Assembly (NCBI GenBank): GCA_038230495.1
Contig: JBBRNC010000008.1
Span: 30,378-94,377 of the forward strand
Direction of reading: 5' to 3'
Length of the DNA: 64,000 bases
Source: Verrucomicrobiales bacterium
Lineage (GTDB): Bacteria > Verrucomicrobiota > Verrucomicrobiia > Verrucomicrobiales > Verrucomicrobiaceae
The notes under the pieces are model-generated. The model did not search any database. It was not told where the DNA came from and worked only from the letters and a program-made list of their open reading frames with translations. The position numbers were made by a program, and so were the translations under genes. Positions 3,186 to 38,370 of the stretch are shown piece by piece (the stretch's first letter is position 1; every line of letters begins with the position of its first letter).

Positions 3186-4400
3186 TTAACGCTCCTGCAG
3201 CGCGGCAACTCCGGGGAGTTCCTTACCTTCGAGCAGTTCGAGGCTGGCACCGCCGCCAGTGGAGATGAAGGTCATTTTATCGGCGAGTTTTGCTTTCTTC
3301 ACGGCCTTCACGCTGTCACCACCACCGATGATGGTTTTGGCACTGCTATTGGCAGCCACGGCTTCGGCGATGTCAAAAGTGCCTTTCGAGCTTTCCTTGA
3401 TTTCAAATACGCCCATCGGCCCATTCCAGATGACTGTCTTGGCTTTGGCGATTTCGGCAGCGAATATTTTTACGGTCTCAGGGCCGATATCAACGCCTTC
3501 CCAACCGTCCGGGATGCTTCCACCGGGCGTGGTGAATTTCGTATTGCCGAGTTTCTTGGCATCAAAATCAAAAGCGTCGGTGATCATGGAGTCCACGGGA
3601 ATGAGCAGCTTCACGCCGCGTTCCTTGGCCTTGTCGAGCGCAGCCTGCGCAATGGGTTCCCACTCGGGCTTGTAGAGGCTCTTCCCGATCGTGATGCCAT
3701 TAACGAGCTTCATGAAAGTGTAAGCCATACCGCCACCGATGATGATGGTGTCGGCCTTTTCGAGCAGGCGATTGATGACACCGATCTTATCATTCACTTT
3801 TGCACCGCCAAGGATCACCACGAAAGGACGCTCGGGATTTTCCAGTTCGTCATGCAGCCAGGTCAATTCCTTCTCCATTAACAAACCGGAAACAGCAGGT
3901 AAATAGGCTGCAACACCCGCAGTCGAACTGTGCGCGCGATGCGCGGAGCCGAAGGCGTCGTTCACATAAATTTCCGCGAGGTCAGCCATCTGCTCGGCGA
4001 GTTCCGCGTCGTTCTTTTCTTCGCCTGCGTGGAAACGCACATTCTCTAGCAGCAGCACACCGCCATTGCCCAAAGCAATCGCCTTGGCCTTAGCATCGGC
4101 GCCGATGCAATCATCCGCGAAATCCACAGGACGGCCCAACATTTCGCTGAGACAAGCCGCGACGGGCTTGAGTGATTGCTTAGGATCGCGCTGGCCTTTC
4201 GGACGGCCAAGATGGCTGCAAAGAATCAGCTTCGCGCCCTGCTCGATGAGGTAATTCAACGTGGGCAGTGTTTCCTTGATGCGGGTGTCATCGGTGATGA
4301 CCATCGTGCCGTTCTGGTCGTCGAGGGGCACGTTGAAATCCACGCGGACGAGGCAGCGCTTGCCGCTCACATCAATGTCACGAATGCTTTTTTTTGCCAT
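3186..4400 (-). CDS. pgk: Phosphoglycerate kinase
   Basis: RVDFNVP N-terminal motif, 404 aa, canonical PGK length and conserved blocks. Confidence 0.95.
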
Positions 4401-4410
4401 TTGGATGAAG

Positions 4411-4442
4411 GGATAAAAAACGGGCGGCGCACTCGCCGCCCG
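4411..4442 (-). terminator. Stem-loop plus T-run between gap and pgk (partial terminator or processing site)
   Basis: On the minus strand, GC stem CGGGCGGCG-AGTGC-CGCCGCCCG followed by TTTTTTATCC; located between the gap stop and the pgk start. Confidence 0.5.
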
Positions 4443-4459
4443 TCATAAATTACGAATTC

Positions 4460-5599
<1,140 letters not shown>

Positions 5600-30404: not shown

Positions 30405-31241
30405 ATGAATGACTATGACCGGATCGCCGCCGTGATTCGATTTATGGACGGACATCACACCGTCCAGCCCTCTCTCGCCGATCTCGCCGCGGCAAGCAAT
30501 TTGAGCGAATCTCATTTCCACCGGCTCTTTCATCGCTGGGCCGGTGTCACGCCGAAGGACTTTCTGCAATGCCTCACGCTCGAACATGCGAAGCACCGCT
30601 TGCGCGAATCGGCCAGCGTCATGGATGCCGCGCTCGATACAGGCTTGTCTGGGCCAGGTCGCTTGCACGATCTGCTCGTGACCATCGAAGCCGCATCGCC
30701 AGGCGAGTTCAAGAGCGGTGGTCGCGGCCTGAGCATCGAATGGGGCTTGGCTGAAAGTCCTTTCGGTTCATGCAGTCTGGGCTGGAACTCACGCGGCATA
30801 TGTCATCTGGTTTTTCGTGAAACGGATGAAGCCAGCGTCGAACCACCTGAACTTCGTGCCATGTGGCCTAATGCGGAGTTGCGCCGCAATGACAAAAAAG
30901 CGCGGCATCAGTCGGAAATCATTTTTCATCGCGCCGCGTCGTTTGGCACCACGCTAAAAACTATTGTTCGCGCCACGCCGTTTCAATTGAAAGTCTGGCG
31001 CGCCTTGCTCCGCATTCCAGAAGGTTGTGTCACGAGTTATGGCTCAATTGCGGATTCCATCGGCAATCCCAAAGCATCACGTGCAGTCGGCAGCGCCTGC
31101 GGCTCGAATGCCATCGCCTATCTCATCCCGTGTCATCGCGTCATCCGCGAGACGGGCGTGATTCAGGGTTATAGGTGGGGCCAGACGCGCAAGCAGGCGC
31201 TTCTGGCGTGGGAATCGTCGCGCACTTTTGAAAACTCGTGA
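30405..31241 (+). CDS. Ada-like bifunctional regulator: AraC-type HTH plus O6-methylguanine-DNA-protein-cysteine methyltransferase
   Basis: N-terminal AraC HTH (LSESHFHRLFHRWAGVTPKDF); C-terminal MGMT active site IPCHRVI with SRAVGSACGSN; 278 aa. Confidence 0.8.
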   Translation: MNDYDRIAAVIRFMDGHHTVQPSLADLAAASNLSESHFHRLFHRWAGVTPKDFLQCLTLEHAKHRLRESASVMDAALDTGLSGPGRLHDLLVTIEAASPGEFKSGGRGLSIEWGLAESPFGSCSLGWNSRGICHLVFRETDEASVEPPELRAMWPNAELRRNDKKARHQSEIIFHRAASFGTTLKTIVRATPFQLKVWRALLRIPEGCVTSYGSIADSIGNPKASRAVGSACGSNAIAYLIPCHRVIRETGVIQGYRWGQTRKQALLAWESSRTFENS

Positions 31242-33241: not shown

Positions 33242-34309
33242 TCACTCGGGCTGAAAAAACAGCGTGAACTCGTGCCGGTTGTAAGTCAGGTGCGTCTGCG
33301 CGAACAACTTCAATCCACCGATGGCTGCTGCTCTTACGATTTCATCAAAAAGTTCCAGCGGTGCATGCACTGTTTCTATGCGCGGAATTTTCAGAGTGAA
33401 AATAACCAGCCCATTCTTCTTCAAAAATACTGACAGCCTGATGACCTGATTGATTGATTCGTGAGGGTCGCCATTCATGTCTGAAAGCAACGCATCATAT
33501 TTCGCGCCCGTCTCTGGTTGAAATTCCGCCACGTTACCACGCACAAATTTTAGCCCGCGCTGATTATGCAGCCGAGCATCTAAAACCGCTACATCTAGCG
33601 CCGTCACGCGCTGTCCCCGCGCCAGCAATTCCGCCGTCATCCCACCGGGACTCGCTCCAAGCTCCAGCCAGTGACTGCCCGCAGGCAGCGGCATGCGATA
33701 CAGTAAAAGATAATGCAAGGCCTCGGCGATCTTCGCCCCGGCGCGACTGATAAGATCAGGCGATTCCACGCCGATGTATTTGCTCCCTCCGGCATAGAAG
33801 CCGTTGGCTGCGCGAGGACTTTGCATACCGCAGAACAATCCTTCCTTACCTACGAGACAGAACAACGTCTCCGCCTCAGGATTCTGCTGCTCCACCTCCT
33901 TCACTCGCAGAGGCGGAAAAAGTTGGAGCACGCGACCGCGCAGATTCGTGGCCAGACTTTTGTAGTAACGATCCGGCGATCCCGCATTGATCTGGCCGAC
34001 GAGAATCGTCTGCGGATTCCGCACCCCGAATTTCTTGAACAATGTCTGCGCCGCCTTCTCGACGAAGCCTTCCATCTTCTGAGGATTGCAGGGCCACGCG
34101 TGTTCTAATGGCAGGTTCCAGCGGACAAATTTCGCTGCGCCCGAGTGCCTCACAGCCTCGGTCTGCTGCGTCTTGATCAAATAATATTCGTTGCCCAGCT
34201 TAGTGCAAATTTGCGCATGGAAGCGTTGCAGAATCTCATCCGCGATGCCTGAAAAAATCTCCGGGATGCGCACTAGCCACGCGACCACATTGTTCTGATC
34301 TGCATTCAT
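33242..34309 (-). CDS. rlmM: RlmM-like 23S rRNA 2'-O-ribose methyltransferase (THUMP-like N-domain plus FtsJ-like MTase)
   Basis: SAM motif LELGASPGGMT, catalytic region DMNGDP, 355 aa; 4-bp overlap with the upstream LRR-kinase gene. Confidence 0.6.
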   Translation of the reverse strand: MNADQNNVVAWLVRIPEIFSGIADEILQRFHAQICTKLGNEYYLIKTQQTEAVRHSGAAKFVRWNLPLEHAWPCNPQKMEGFVEKAAQTLFKKFGVRNPQTILVGQINAGSPDRYYKSLATNLRGRVLQLFPPLRVKEVEQQNPEAETLFCLVGKEGLFCGMQSPRAANGFYAGGSKYIGVESPDLISRAGAKIAEALHYLLLYRMPLPAGSHWLELGASPGGMTAELLARGQRVTALDVAVLDARLHNQRGLKFVRGNVAEFQPETGAKYDALLSDMNGDPHESINQVIRLSVFLKKNGLVIFTLKIPRIETVHAPLELFDEIVRAAAIGGLKLFAQTHLTYNRHEFTLFFQPE

Positions 34310-35640
34310 AGCGTTATTTTCACAAGCCGCGCGAGTTCCGATTCAATCTCCGCAAACAAAGGCCGCGCTGACACCTCTGCCGCAATGCAGCGCGCTTGCA
34401 AGGCCCGCAATCCATCCATGACCGGCTTTTGTGCTGGCTCCAATACCACGCGATCCAATAACTCTTCCAGCAGACATGCAAACGCGCGGACTTCGATTCG
34501 TTGCAACGCGGATGACGCCCGGTTCTCCATCGCTGAATAGAATGAGGCCGCGCCGAAGTCACCCAAGAGACAGTGCCCGTCTTCATGCCACAACACATTA
34601 TGCGCGTAGAGATCGCCGTGCATGATGCCCCGCACATGAAGCCGTTGCGCCGCAGAAGCAATACCACGCGCGATACGAAACGATACGGAGAGGGTAAAGT
34701 TTTGATCTTCCGCATAAAGATCGCGCGTGCACGAATCAAAATCTGGCGGCCCGGCGAGTGTGCGGAATTCGGGTTCAATCAATGACATCACTAGCCCTTC
34801 GCTTCGCATCGGATGATTCACGATGCGCCCCATCACCTCGATCAAATTTGGATGCGCACCGGCAGCGAGACACGCGGCCATTTCGCTAGCAGGCAGTCCG
34901 TCACTGGTGACTGCGCCTTTGAAAACCTTCACTGCCACCGATTGCGACACATCACCGCTCGCTGATCGCCAAGACGCACGATGAATCACGCCCGAGGCTC
35001 CCTCGCCGAGTTGCTCATGCAACTCAATCTGCGCCCAATCAATCTCCGCCATCACGTCTGAATCATTATCCAACGCGTTCGCACAAGGATTGCCCGCCAG
35101 TGCCAGCCATGACAACTTCGGCAGCGAAAGCAGCCACTCCGGCAAGGCGCGGAGATTGTTAGCCGCCAGCCGGATGAGTTCCAGATTCTTGCACGCCGCC
35201 ATCTCCACAGGTAGCTCGTCGAGTTGATTGCCAGCGAGCATCAGCTTCTGCAACCGAGTGCAGCGCCCGATGGTCGGCGGCAACTTGCGGATTCGATTGT
35301 CCGTGAGACTCAGCCAGCGCAAAGCCGGAGAAAACGCGCCCTCATCCACGGAATCAATGCGGTTTGATTTGAAACCGATCATGCTCAGATTCTCGCAATC
35401 GCTGAGCACGGCGGGAAGATGAGTAAAGTCGTTCGATGAACAAAAGAGGATGCGCAACTTGCGCAGTCGGCCCAGATCATCCGGCAGTGTGGAGAGCCGG
35501 TTGTTCGTCAGACTGAGAACCTCCAGCGAATCCGCCAGATCAAAAATCTCTCGCGGAAACTCCGTTAGCCCGCAGGCCAGTTCCAGCCGAGTCGCCCCGG
35601 CCAGCTTTCCGGCGCGCAATAATTCAAGAGTGTCCATCAT
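34306..35640 (-). CDS. Leucine-rich-repeat protein fused to a eukaryotic-like Ser/Thr protein kinase domain
   Basis: About 7 LRRs (LxxLxLxxNxL: LEVLSLTNNRLSTLP, LRILFCSSNDFTHLP, LRWLSLTDNRIRKLP...) then a kinase with GEGASG loop, VAVKVFK lysine, HGDLYAHNVLW catalytic loop and LGDFGAA. Confidence 0.75.
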   Translation of the reverse strand: MMDTLELLRAGKLAGATRLELACGLTEFPREIFDLADSLEVLSLTNNRLSTLPDDLGRLRKLRILFCSSNDFTHLPAVLSDCENLSMIGFKSNRIDSVDEGAFSPALRWLSLTDNRIRKLPPTIGRCTRLQKLMLAGNQLDELPVEMAACKNLELIRLAANNLRALPEWLLSLPKLSWLALAGNPCANALDNDSDVMAEIDWAQIELHEQLGEGASGVIHRASWRSASGDVSQSVAVKVFKGAVTSDGLPASEMAACLAAGAHPNLIEVMGRIVNHPMRSEGLVMSLIEPEFRTLAGPPDFDSCTRDLYAEDQNFTLSVSFRIARGIASAAQRLHVRGIMHGDLYAHNVLWHEDGHCLLGDFGAASFYSAMENRASSALQRIEVRAFACLLEELLDRVVLEPAQKPVMDGLRALQARCIAAEVSARPLFAEIESELARLVKITL

Positions 35641-35674
35641 GAATGGCGTCGTGCTGTTCGTGGCGAGAGCAATG

Positions 35675-36397
35675 TTACGGACTCAGCCGCGAGCGCAACC
35701 AGCCGCCTTCCTTTCGCGAGAAGCTAAACCGATCATGCAGGCGGCTCGGTCTTCCCTGCCAGAATTCGATTTCATCAGGAGCGAGCACGTAGCCGCCCCA
35801 GTTCGGGGGGAGCGGGACTTGGCCTTCGGGAAATTTTTCGGTGAGTTCGCGCTCACGATTCTCCAGCCATGCGCGATCCGGGATGCGCTCGCTTTGTTCG
35901 CTAACCCACGCGCCGATCTGGCTGCCGTAAGGACGTGATTGAAAATAGGTGTCTGATTCTTCATGACTGAGACGGCTGACGATGCCGCGAACGCAGACCT
36001 GTCTTTCGCGTTCTTTCCAGAAGATGGTGAGCGCAGCCTTTGGGTTCGTCGCGAGTTCGCGGCCTTTGCGGCTGTTGTAATTCGTGAAGAAGGAGAAGCC
36101 GCGCGTGTCGAAGCCCTTCAGTAAAACTGTGCGACAAGATGGCTGGCCATCTGCGGAAACGGTTGCGAGCGTCATGGCGTTCGGTTCCACCAAGGCGGCT
36201 GCGATGGCGTCGTCGAGCCAAAGTTTGAAAAGCACGAAGGGATCACCGGGCAGCGTGGCCTCGTCGAGTGCACCTTTTTCGTAATTCAGGCGCAAGTCGG
36301 CGAGATTCGGTTTGCCAGAGGGCGATGCTGATGGATAGAAGACGGACACAAGACAAGGATGAAGGATGAAAGATGGAGGAGCAAGTAATCTAAGCAA
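35675..36397 (-). CDS. pdxH: Pyridoxamine 5'-phosphate oxidase
   Basis: FMN-binding split-barrel blocks and the conserved C-terminal [13 protein letters not shown] motif; exact start uncertain. Confidence 0.85.
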
Positions 36398-36400
36398 ACC

Positions 36401-36958
36401 ATGAGCACGACCCCCGGAGTTTTATCAAGCCTCGAACGCGTGCTGCTGGATGCAGGCACGATCCAACGTCGTGTTGCAGAGATGGCTGCGGAGATCGAGC
36501 GCGATTTCGCCGGGCGTGAGTTGAGTGTGGTGACGCTGATGGACGGGGCTTTGTTCTTCGTGGCAGACCTGCTGCGGGCTATTAACTTACCAGTGCGGCT
36601 GCACACGCTGACGGTCAGCAGCTATCATGGCGGCACCAGTTCCAGTGGGCGTGTGCATTTGGCGCAGCAGCTTCCCTTTGATCTGACAACGCGCCATGTG
36701 CTGCTGATTGACGACATCCTCGACACTGGCCTGACGCTGGCGACCGTGCGTGAGCGCATCCTCGCAGAATGCAAACCGATAACGCTGCGTGTGGCCGTGC
36801 TCCTAAGTAAACAGCGGGAACGTGAACGCGAAGTGCCAGTGGATTACGCAGGATTTGAGATCGCAGATGAGTTTGTCGTCGGCTACGGCATGGATTATCA
36901 GGGACACTACCGGAATCTGCCGTGCATCGGGATTCTGAATCCGGGGAAGGCAGAGTGA
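36401..36958 (+). CDS. hpt: Hypoxanthine-guanine phosphoribosyltransferase
   Basis: PRPP-binding motif [14 protein letters not shown]; 185 aa. Confidence 0.85.
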
Positions 36959-37007
36959 AGAAAGGAACGATGGAAGATTGGAATGTTGGAATACTGAAAG
37001 GCATGTG

Positions 37008-37253
37008 ATGAAAGTTCGTGTTCTATTTTTTTCCGTGCTTCGCGACATCGTTGGCACTGACGAGTGGACAATGGAAATGCCTGATGACGCATCGGTAAGC
37101 GATCTCCTCGATGAGGCCTTCACGCGTTGGCCAAAGCTAAAGGATTGGGACGCCAGCCTACTGATCGCTGTCGATCAATCCTACACAAAACGCGATACCA
37201 CGCTGCATGACGGCGCAGAAGTTGCCCTCATGCCGCCGGTGCAAGGAGGATGA
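37008..37253 (+). CDS. moaD: MoaD/ThiS-family sulfur carrier protein
   Basis: 82-aa beta-grasp ORF ending in the diglycine PPVQGG; ORF track start 36978 trimmed to MKVRVLF. Confidence 0.65.
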   Translation: MKVRVLFFSVLRDIVGTDEWTMEMPDDASVSDLLDEAFTRWPKLKDWDASLLIAVDQSYTKRDTTLHDGAEVALMPPVQGG

Positions 37254-37317
37254 AATAATGAGTGATGAATAGACTTCCAGCCCGTTCCATAACTCATAAC
37301 TCATAACCCGTCCTCCC

Positions 37318-38370
37318 ATGCCCTGCCCTTTCCTCCCCCTGCCCTCGCGCGTCTTCACACACGATGACATGCACGCGCTAGGAAAAGATCGCAGCGCGGT
37401 CTTTTATCATACTGCGCTGAATTACGGGCAGTCGCTGTGGCTGACGGGTTTCCCGGCGAAATCACTATTACTGATCAATCGCGCGCTTTCCTGCAAGCTG
37501 CTGGATGTTGCACTCGATGGTGACGCGAAACCCTATCACGCCATTGCGTGGATTTTGCTGAATCGCCCGGCAGATCGTTTCATTGGAAATCCACGCCGTC
37601 ACTATCAGCATCTCGCCACGCGAATGGTGGAACCGCACAAGGAACTGCGGACTTGGCGCGCATGGGCTTGCTGGTATCTCGCTAAACAATTGCTGGATGA
37701 AGGAGAGTTCCCACCCGATGTGGTGCAAGTGCGCGAGGAACTAATCGTCAAGCCGCGCCGCGCCGACATTGCCAGTAATCTTGTGAAGTTGAGTCCCAGC
37801 GATGATTTGATAGCGTGGCAAGCCGCGCTATCTTGGGCGCAGGAACAAACGGGCCAGCTTCATCGCACAGAGCCGACATTGGTAGATTTTCATCTCATAG
37901 GTGAGGAAGACTTGAATGAAGTGTGGCGGCTGGCACAACTTATCTGGCACGCTGTTTATCCGGACATTATCAGTGTGGCGCAGATTGATTACATGCTGAA
38001 GGAAAGGTATGCGCCCGCAGTATTGCTAAATGATCTGGCGCGCGGAGTTCACATGTCGCTAATTCGCGAAGGCCCGGATAACATCGGCTTTATAGCGTGG
38101 GAGGCCTTGCCTGACGGAGTGGCGTTTCTGCATAAGCTCTATGTGCTCCCCGCCCGACACGGATGCGGCGTAGGTGCGCAGGCTTTGCGTTGGGTCGCAG
38201 AACAGGCCCGCACTGCCGGCATGACTTGCGTCAGCCTGCGAGTGAACCGCAAAAATCTGAAGGCGATCCGGGCCTATCTCCGCGAAGGATTTTTATTTGA
38301 GCAAGACGTGTGCACTGAGATCGGTGAAGGCTACGTGATGGACGATCATGTGATGACGCGTCCACTTTGA
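37318..38370 (+). CDS. Two-domain protein with C-terminal GNAT N-acetyltransferase
   Basis: C-terminal HKLYVLPARHGCGVGAQAL (GNAT motif A); N-terminal ~200 aa of unknown function. Confidence 0.55.
   Translation: MPCPFLPLPSRVFTHDDMHALGKDRSAVFYHTALNYGQSLWLTGFPAKSLLLINRALSCKLLDVALDGDAKPYHAIAWILLNRPADRFIGNPRRHYQHLATRMVEPHKELRTWRAWACWYLAKQLLDEGEFPPDVVQVREELIVKPRRADIASNLVKLSPSDDLIAWQAALSWAQEQTGQLHRTEPTLVDFHLIGEEDLNEVWRLAQLIWHAVYPDIISVAQIDYMLKERYAPAVLLNDLARGVHMSLIREGPDNIGFIAWEALPDGVAFLHKLYVLPARHGCGVGAQALRWVAEQARTAGMTCVSLRVNRKNLKAIRAYLREGFLFEQDVCTEIGEGYVMDDHVMTRPL

Follow-up and report, generated by a model that had tools for sequence, protein, structure and literature searches.

A cytoplasmic leucine-rich repeat kinase of the BLRK family and its RlmM-like methyltransferase neighbour in a Verrucomicrobiales genome

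Contig JBBRNC010000008.1 of a Verrucomicrobiales bacterium (assembly GCA_038230495.1) carries, within a 64,000-nucleotide stretch that was analysed as a whole and is referred to here as the window, a gene for a protein kinase of 444 amino acids (aa) in which leucine-rich repeats (LRRs) precede a kinase domain similar to those of eukaryotes. The gene occupies positions 34306..35640 on the minus strand, and it is an unremarkable representative of BLRK, an orphan family already named in 2007. The reading that we prefer, and to which we assign a probability of about 0.6, is that the product is a soluble cytoplasmic BLRK protein composed of a kinase core and of LRRs that dock a conserved cellular partner, and that the local gene order, in which an RlmM-like methyltransferase gene comes directly after the kinase gene, does not represent a conserved functional module.

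Assignment to the BLRK family

The list of open reading frames (ORFs) and a Pfam domain search agree with the original prediction, made from the letters of the window, of a 444-aa protein with LRRs followed by a kinase domain. LRR_8 matched the N-terminal 190 residues (3.4e-23), and PK_Tyr_Ser-Thr and Pkinase matched residues 205-384 (7.2e-18 and 8.6e-12, respectively). In the AlphaFold2 model of the protein (mean predicted local distance difference test score, pLDDT, 89.4; predicted template modelling score, pTM, 0.86), the LRR domain (residues 14-190; 35071..35601, minus strand) and the short kinase domain (residues 204-444; 34309..35031, minus strand) are joined by a linker of 13 residues. 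The highest mean Kyte-Doolittle value over 19 residues was 1.16 and the N-terminus is polar, so that the hydropathy scan and the N-terminal sequence make neither a transmembrane segment nor a signal peptide evident, as had been predicted. An identical protein is already recorded at NCBI. Since the GC content and the GC content at third codon positions (GC3, 0.634) of the kinase gene equal those of the flanking genes, a recent horizontal insertion of the gene was ruled out.

The family to which this protein belongs was described by Kannan et al. 2007 (PLoS Biol 5:e17, PMC1821047), whose Dataset S2 contains a hidden Markov model (HMM) in which BLRK stands for 'Bacterial Leucine Rich Repeat Kinase'. 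The corresponding FASTA file lists SO4016 of Shewanella oneidensis and Burkholderia proteins that have the same motifs as the window kinase, and the family had fewer than 100 members in 2007, with no function given (Kannan et al. 2007, PMC1821047). Comparison of the window kinase with SO4016 by BLASTP revealed 48% identity over 447 aa, that is, over the full length (E = 1e-141), and the signature motifs CGLTEFPREIFDLAD, MIGFKANRI, LRWLILTDN, LQKLMLAGN, HGDLYAHN and EVRAF are common to the window kinase and BLRK. According to the residue table of the same study, a cysteine in subdomain XI is present in 98% of BLRK proteins (Kannan et al. 2007, PMC1821047). This family-typical residue corresponds to C418 (LQARC) of the window kinase and was invariant in an alignment of 20 homologues from several phyla (alignment A1). 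It is because of the name of the HMM, the motifs of the listed SO4016 and Burkholderia proteins and the full-length identity that we place the window kinase in BLRK.

The family is now large. More than 8000 homologues of the window kinase were returned, and identities of about 60% were observed with proteins of Verrucomicrobiota, Hymenobacter, Gallionella, Azonexus, Paraburkholderia, Pseudomonas, Cyanobium and Sulfurimonadaceae; the name given to these homologues at NCBI is 'leucine-rich repeat-containing protein kinase family protein'. When the kinase domain only was compared with 1.84 billion cluster representatives (clusters at 50% identity), 263 clusters were matched at E <= 1e-30, and the architecture of BLRK can be regarded as fixed because nearly all of these proteins have a length of 420-480 aa and a kinase domain that spans approximately residues 200-440. 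The apparent long N-terminal extensions of some GC-rich BLRK loci were dismissed as artefacts of start-codon choice, an exonuclease fusion being the sole real one. Two proteins of Pseudomonas aeruginosa are candidates for BLRK membership: PA1782, which appears in the literature solely as a third, unstudied serine/threonine (Ser/Thr) kinase of the species, and an LRR-kinase, gi 9948555, that has been reported (Krupa and Srinivasan 2005). No functional study of BLRK, of SO4016, of bacterial LRR kinases or of LRR-bearing Hanks-type kinases was found in the literature searched.

A short kinase domain behind conserved repeats

The elements expected of a protein kinase core (the GxGxxG loop, the VAIK lysine, the alphaC glutamate, the HxD aspartate, the catalytic-loop asparagine and the DFG aspartate) are all present in the LRR-kinase, and the motifs named in the original prediction lie where it had placed them. 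On the minus strand, these are the glycine-rich loop GEGASG (residues 212-217; 34990..35007), VAVK with the catalytic Lys238 (235-238; 34927..34938), the catalytic loop HGDLYAHN, of the non-RD type (341-348; 34597..34620), and DFG (361-363; 34552..34560). In alignment A1, residues G212-G217, K238, the alphaC glutamate E253, D343, N348 and D361-G363 were invariant, as were G342, L344, Y345 and H347 of the catalytic loop, and H341 was at least 90% conserved. Every residue for ATP binding and phosphate transfer is thus kept in the kinase domain. The possibility of a pseudokinase was checked with this alignment and, since the catalytic residues are conserved across the 20 homologues, the window kinase is not a pseudokinase as far as sequence can tell.

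Among solved structures, eukaryotic kinases come closest to the kinase domain. Its best sequence matches in the PDB were EGFR, EphB4, B-Raf, TNNI3K and FGFR, its best Foldseek matches were Abl, EGFR, B-Raf and FGFR, and none in either group was of the PknB type; the NCBIfam PknB model scored the LRR-kinase at 25 bits vs a cutoff of 450. In the alignment with EphB4, query residues 172-211 correspond to EphB4 residues 172-252, which makes the window domain about 40 residues shorter. Only about 10 residues separate DFG from a long helix in the AlphaFold2 model, and just three helices follow DFG (373-396, 402-418 and 429-443). The stretch EVRAFACLLEELL resembles subdomain IX of tyrosine kinase-like (TKL) proteins, and ARPLF resembles subdomain XI. 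The likeness of EVRAFACLLEELL and ARPLF to these subdomains indicates that the missing parts are most of the activation segment, with its APE motif, and helix alphaG. The domain is thus of the tyrosine kinase or TKL type, with a shortened C-lobe that lacks these elements.

The original prediction had called this domain a Ser/Thr kinase. According to the published rule for the catalytic loop, kinases of the Ser/Thr type carry [LI]KPx and those of the Tyr type carry [LI]AAR (Kannan et al. 2007, PMC1821047), and the HGDLYAHN loop fits neither. The loop reads DLYAHN where the Ser/Thr type would read D[LI]KPxN; HGD replaces HRD, so that the HRD arginine is absent, and a short segment after DFG takes the place of an activation loop ending in APE. 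Because the DLYAHN loop matches neither rule, the 'Ser/Thr' specificity of the window kinase is to be taken as an assumption that is not established.

Column by column, the LRR domain is the best conserved part of the BLRK protein across phyla. The strands of this domain in the AlphaFold2 model are located at residues 18, 41, 64, 87, 109, 132, 155 and 178, that is, eight turns with a period of 22-23 residues, which is near the figure of about seven repeats originally predicted but exceeds it by one. Over five phyla, the mean column identity was 0.78 in the LRR domain vs 0.69 in the kinase domain. Of the 68 LRR positions that are invariant across the five phyla, many occupy the variable x positions of the LxxLxLxxN repeat, for example F66, K91, R108, W109, T113, D114, Q131, K132, M134, E154, R157 and W178, and this leads us to infer that the concave face of the repeats binds a conserved ligand.

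These features suggest how a BLRK protein could work. The kinase core may be competent without phosphorylation of an activation loop, and the shortened domain would itself offer little surface for binding a substrate. It would depend on the LRRs, whose invariant concave face would dock a conserved partner in the cell (a substrate or an activating ligand) and thereby bring it to the active site of the kinase.

The same repeats bear on two other explanations of the protein. The first is that it acts as a single-gene anti-phage kinase, like PD-T4-6 or Mad6, in which the LRRs would sense a phage protein and the kinase would trigger abortive infection. PADLOC scored the kinase at 65.6 bits for mad6 and 41 bits for PD-T4-6, and the neighbouring methyltransferase weakly, at 29 bits, for mad2; the family is patchy over phyla yet highly similar, which suggests horizontal transfer; and a TIR-domain protein and a toxin-antitoxin pair lie near the kinase in contigs L086 and L175, respectively. 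However, the matches cover the generic kinase core only (mad6 profile positions 37-211 of 659), and the neighbours of the kinase are mostly housekeeping genes, not defence islands. In addition, the GC3 of the kinase gene equals that of its neighbours, and LRRs that are about 78% conserved per column over five phyla are unlike what is expected of an arms-race sensor, so that we consider a defence role very unlikely. The more specific candidate of a MADS system, with the kinase as mad6 and the methyltransferase as mad2, was rejected: the matches are to generic domains, the other mad genes are absent, and the methyltransferase is a vertically inherited RlmM-like protein.

The second explanation is that of a secreted LRR effector aimed at eukaryotic hosts, comparable to the LRR-bearing type III effectors. 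It draws on the eukaryotic look of the kinase domain and on matches of the LRR region to the NCBIfam models XopAC (90.9 bits), XopAE, XopL and SlrP, but these matches are confined to the LRRs, their scores are far under the cutoffs (90.9 vs 450), and the Fic or NEL domain that goes with XopAC, XopL and SlrP was not found. Furthermore, free-living bacteria (Gallionella, Hymenobacter, Cyanobium and Verrucomicrobiota) commonly carry members of the family, and no secretion-system genes were found near the kinase. An effector function is, in our opinion, scarcely credible. A soluble BLRK kinase that docks an intracellular partner remains the reading that we favour.

Gene neighbourhood of the kinase

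The window kinase gene is part of a string of minus-strand genes, pdxH, LRR-kinase and RlmM-like methyltransferase, that is probably co-transcribed. The pdxH gene (35675..36397; 273 bits with NCBIfam pdxH vs a cutoff of 180) had been predicted to follow the kinase on the same strand. The strand is correct, but with respect to transcription pdxH lies upstream, 34 nt away from the kinase start, and the order of the genes is therefore pdxH, kinase, methyltransferase. No terminator-like or promoter-like site was seen in the 34-nt spacer between pdxH and the kinase (35641..35674, minus strand). At the other end of the kinase gene, the plus strand reads 'tcat' at 34306-34309, which corresponds to ATGA on the minus strand, and the TGA of the kinase overlaps the ATG of the methyltransferase by 4 bp, in agreement with the overlap originally reported.

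The methyltransferase gene (33242..34309, minus strand) encodes a 355-aa protein that is predicted to be an RlmM-like two-domain 2'-O-methyltransferase, with a THUMP-like N-terminal domain and a C-terminal FtsJ-type methyltransferase domain. Pfam FtsJ matched the protein at 33.8 bits, above the cutoff, and a phmmer search against the PDB gave no match. On the other hand, a profile built from 17 orthologues (A2) matched Escherichia coli RlmM (4atn; 9e-11); the match spans the methyltransferase domain and aligns the FtsJ-type Asp, Lys and Glu. The AlphaFold2 model (pLDDT 85.7) matched 4atn over its full length with a template modelling (TM) score of 0.69 over 384 columns, vs about 0.4 for the next fold matches, which were THUMP-containing tRNA methyltransferases. 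Because of this full-length match in the model, the label 'rlmM-like' may be considered fair. The plain name rlmM used in the original prediction is thus supported by the fold but is not secure by sequence, as the NCBIfam RlmM equivalog (PRK11760) scored 58.1 bits vs a cutoff of 176. Verrucomicrobiales inherit the methyltransferase vertically, and the Prosthecobacter proteins are about 70% identical to it.

Conservation of the pairing was analysed in 80 kinase loci from other genomes, the best-scoring 80 of at least 598, which came from Proteobacteria, Bacteroidota, Cyanobacteria, Campylobacterota and Verrucomicrobiota. By tblastn, an RlmM-like or PdxH ORF was present within 6 kb of the kinase in 0/80 of these loci, and the result for the RlmM-like ORF was also 0/80 with a profile HMM able to detect E. 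coli RlmM. This profile finds an RlmM-like gene beside the kinase solely in seven verrucomicrobial loci (L081-L085, L173 and L175), and the pairing is present only there. In the reciprocal analysis, the LRR-kinase was absent from all 80 metagenome loci with methyltransferase orthologues (54-71% identity), of which 53 had at least 1400 nt of upstream sequence.

The loci with the pairing differ in their surroundings. P0003 (79% kinase identity) shows pdxH, kinase and methyltransferase with the 4-bp overlap, and this overlap is kept in L084 and L085. In P0005 (78% kinase identity), a Y1 transposase gene on the opposite strand is followed by the kinase, a 13-nt gap and the methyltransferase. The Y1 (IS200-type) transposase gene takes the place of pdxH in the contigs of this lineage (L081 347-799, L082 305-757 and L083 236-688), which means that the kinase and the methyltransferase have stayed together although the flank upstream of them was rearranged. 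More distant relatives, P0037 and P0020 (64-66% kinase identity), carry YiiD_C, kinase, methyltransferase and GFO_IDH_MocA in a row, with a methyltransferase 65% identical to that of the window, and they rule out that the pairing is limited to kinases of at least 78% identity or to one genus. The overlap itself is not conserved, the spacing in L081, L173 and L175 being 13, 51 and 75 nt, respectively. Upstream of pdxH, the region 36401-38370 of the window, a divergent cluster of hpt (Pribosyltran), a ThiS/MoaD-like gene and a gene for a 350-aa acetyltransferase, is syntenic with L084 and L085, and the genomes behind the window and the P0003 contigs are therefore close relatives.

The two pairing clades did not come out as sisters in the neighbour-joining tree of either protein. 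On the kinase side, the nearest relatives of the window clade (P0007 and P0008) have no methyltransferase, and the methyltransferase lineages nearest to the window clade (L111, L112, L114 and L116) have no kinase. Seven other verrucomicrobial kinase lineages lack the pairing and show different neighbours, such as the order rpiB, YiiD_C, kinase, DACNV, the order RecQ, kinase, or unrelated genes. Since only two of the roughly nine verrucomicrobial lineages sampled carry the pairing, and no locus outside them does, we conclude that it is a partly retained verrucomicrobial gene order and not a conserved functional module. Being kept in its own clade and in a second, non-sister clade, the pairing is not unique to the window genome, yet it is rare and restricted to one phylum. 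That homologues are never linked to rlmM, in which case the coupling would be fortuitous, is nearly what was observed, with the window clade and the second verrucomicrobial clade as the exception.

These results bear directly on the proposal, made with the original prediction, that an operon with rlmM points to regulation of ribosome biogenesis by phosphorylation. In its full form, this explanation takes the RlmM-like methyltransferase, or intermediates of 50S assembly, to be substrates of the kinase, and the operon with the 4-bp overlap to reflect their partnership. The overlap in the window, L084 and L085, the same order with an orthologous methyltransferase (65%) in a second non-sister clade in which both flanks are different, and the modelled RlmM fold of the neighbour argue in its favour. 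However, outside the pairing clades no RlmM-like ORF was found in the 80 kinase loci even by the profile HMM, and no kinase in the 80 methyltransferase loci; P0007 and P0008 on the kinase side, and L111, L112, L114 and L116 on the methyltransferase side, lack the other gene; and 13-75 nt separate the genes in pairs beyond those with the overlap. Together with the seven verrucomicrobial lineages without the pairing, these observations leave the proposal largely unsupported. Furthermore, the LRR surface remains invariant in phyla in which kinase and rlmM are never adjacent, and the conserved partner is therefore unlikely to be this methyltransferase. Altogether, the adjacency lends little support to a control of ribosome assembly by the kinase, nothing indicates that the methyltransferase is its target, and we regard the ribosomal explanation as improbable.

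It has to be noted that several points weigh against the preferred reading of a BLRK kinase in a gene order that is not a conserved module. The occurrence of the pair in two non-sister clades with both flanks differing is beyond pure chance and could reflect selection for co-expression, and Verrucomicrobiota are under-sampled among the 80 kinase loci. Moreover, no biochemical or genetic data on any BLRK member were found in the literature searched, and we infer kinase activity, the docking role of the LRRs and the nature of the partner alike.

BLRK has no conserved genomic partner in the loci analysed. Clustering by BLAST of the ORFs within 4 kb of the kinase gave a largest group of 12/80 loci, and a Pfam census of the nearest ORFs on either side gave a largest group of 7 of 68-71 loci, all seven from Paraburkholderia. 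In a few lineages, on the other hand, the neighbours raise the possibility that BLRK works in DNA or nucleic-acid metabolism together with WRN-like components. The kinase of Gallionellaceae and Sideroxydans is fused to a 3'-5' exonuclease of the DEDDy type (P0062, P0086, P0098, P0113 and L001, 6001-7977), overlaps it by 4 bp (L002, 6001-7323 and 7320-7979) or adjoins it (L019 and L025). The DEDDy motifs are intact in this exonuclease, and among solved structures the WRN exonuclease domain is its best match (2fbt, E = 2.7e-13). In one verrucomicrobial lineage, a full-length RecQ with DEAD, Helicase_C, RecQ_Zn_bind, RQC and HRDC domains ends 9-13 nt before the start of the kinase (L170, 2841-4991 and 5001-6335; L171, 2834-4987 and 5001-6341). 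The tie to the exonuclease and the RecQ-kinase operon constitute two independent links to WRN-like parts, to which neighbouring Ogt (seven Paraburkholderia loci), RecG (2), SNF2 helicase (2) and dnaN (1) genes can be added. Nevertheless, none of the links extends beyond a single lineage; when neighbours are counted by lineage, repair genes are in small excess, which was not shown to be significant; the majority of neighbours are unrelated housekeeping genes; and no exonuclease or RecQ homologue was found within the window. A role of this kind is accordingly rated as unlikely. RecQ was also considered as a general neighbour of the kinase and discarded, as it was found solely in L170 and L171.

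A broader proposal combines these associations: BLRKs would be cytosolic LRR 'receptor' kinases that use their invariant LRR face to dock nucleic-acid enzymes, with the partner at times captured in cis, and the window kinase would control RlmM and late 50S maturation. If this were true, the partners captured in cis would be a WRN-like exonuclease in the Gallionellaceae fusion, RecQ in one verrucomicrobial clade and the RlmM-like protein in two. We consider this generalization a long shot, and we retain the reading of a BLRK kinase whose conserved partner is not revealed by gene order.

Other genes were observed near the kinase. The most recurrent neighbour in Verrucomicrobiota, which is absent from the window, is a gene for a 148-aa YiiD_C hotdog-fold thioesterase-like protein, located 1-31 nt upstream of the kinase in two verrucomicrobial clades on four contigs (L173 3553-3999, L175 1212-1658, L168 4526-4972 and L177 2219-2665) and 2 kb upstream of it in a third lineage (L172 1366-1812). 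A 426-aa DACNV 'probable sensor domain' protein flanks the kinase in two or three verrucomicrobial lineages (L168 6362-7642, L177 4068-5348 and L017 4645-5892), its gene coming after the kinase in two of them and before it in Luteolibacter. The window has an Ada-like AraC-Ogt ORF at 30405-31241, about 3 kb from the kinase, and Ogt divergently adjoins the kinase in seven Paraburkholderia loci (e.g., L023 5158-5775); these positions probably reflect coincidence and synteny within the genus. Finally, L086 encodes a 468-aa TIR_2 and FGE-sulfatase protein (3287-4693) two genes upstream of the LRR-kinase, with a SUI1 gene between them.

Comparison with known systems

BLRK is among the few bacterial protein-kinase-like families that are nearer to eukaryotic tyrosine kinases and TKL kinases (TK/TKL) than to PknB-type kinases, and it combines identities of about 60% over at least five phyla with LRRs that are more conserved than the kinase. 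Members occur in the tractable Shewanella oneidensis, in strains of the Pseudomonas fluorescens group and in Paraburkholderia. As no functional study of the family was found for nearly twenty years, identification of the LRR ligand would be a real advance in the understanding of bacterial signalling, to which the window locus adds little beyond a weak, lineage-specific hint.

The TK/TKL kinases B-Raf, Eph, EGFR, FGFR and TNNI3K provide the best matches of the window kinase domain in both sequence and fold. The window kinase shares with them a IX-like stretch (EVRAFxCLLEELL) and a XI-like stretch (C..x..ARPxF). Unlike them, it lacks about 40 residues of the region from DFG to subdomain XI, it has no activation loop, APE motif or alphaG, and it carries HGD for HRD and DLYAHN for DLAARN or DLKxxN.

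With regard to the whole protein, the original prediction had compared its architecture with that of LRRK and receptor-like kinases (RLKs). The cytoplasmic LRRs and the eukaryote-like kinase bear out this comparison, but the ROC and COR domains of the former and the signal peptide and transmembrane segment of the latter are absent. As in the ROCO/LRRK proteins (LRRK2 and the Dictyostelium Roco kinases), intracellular SHOC2-type LRRs are N-terminal to a TKL-like kinase, and the top PDB matches for the LRR part were SHOC2 and LRRD1. In contrast to these proteins, Pfam gave no match to a ROC GTPase or COR domain, and only the 13-residue linker separates LRRs and kinase. The combination of LRRs and kinase is also that of the plant LRR receptor kinases FLS2, BRI1 and PEPR1, from which the window protein differs in that its LRRs are cytoplasmic, without a signal peptide or transmembrane helix, and in the truncation of the C-lobe of its kinase. 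A non-RD catalytic loop is also found in several plant immune receptor kinases.

The methyltransferase neighbour is comparable to E. coli RlmM (YgdE, the 23S rRNA C2498 2'-O-methyltransferase; 4atn), with 355 aa vs 366 aa and a predicted fold that matches over the full length; unlike the E. coli enzyme, it is below the NCBIfam equivalog cutoff, and the identity in the structural alignment is 15%. The closest comparison for the kinase is with BLRK itself, as represented by SO4016: architecture and length are the same, nothing structural differs, and the sole local peculiarity of the window kinase is its RlmM-like neighbour.

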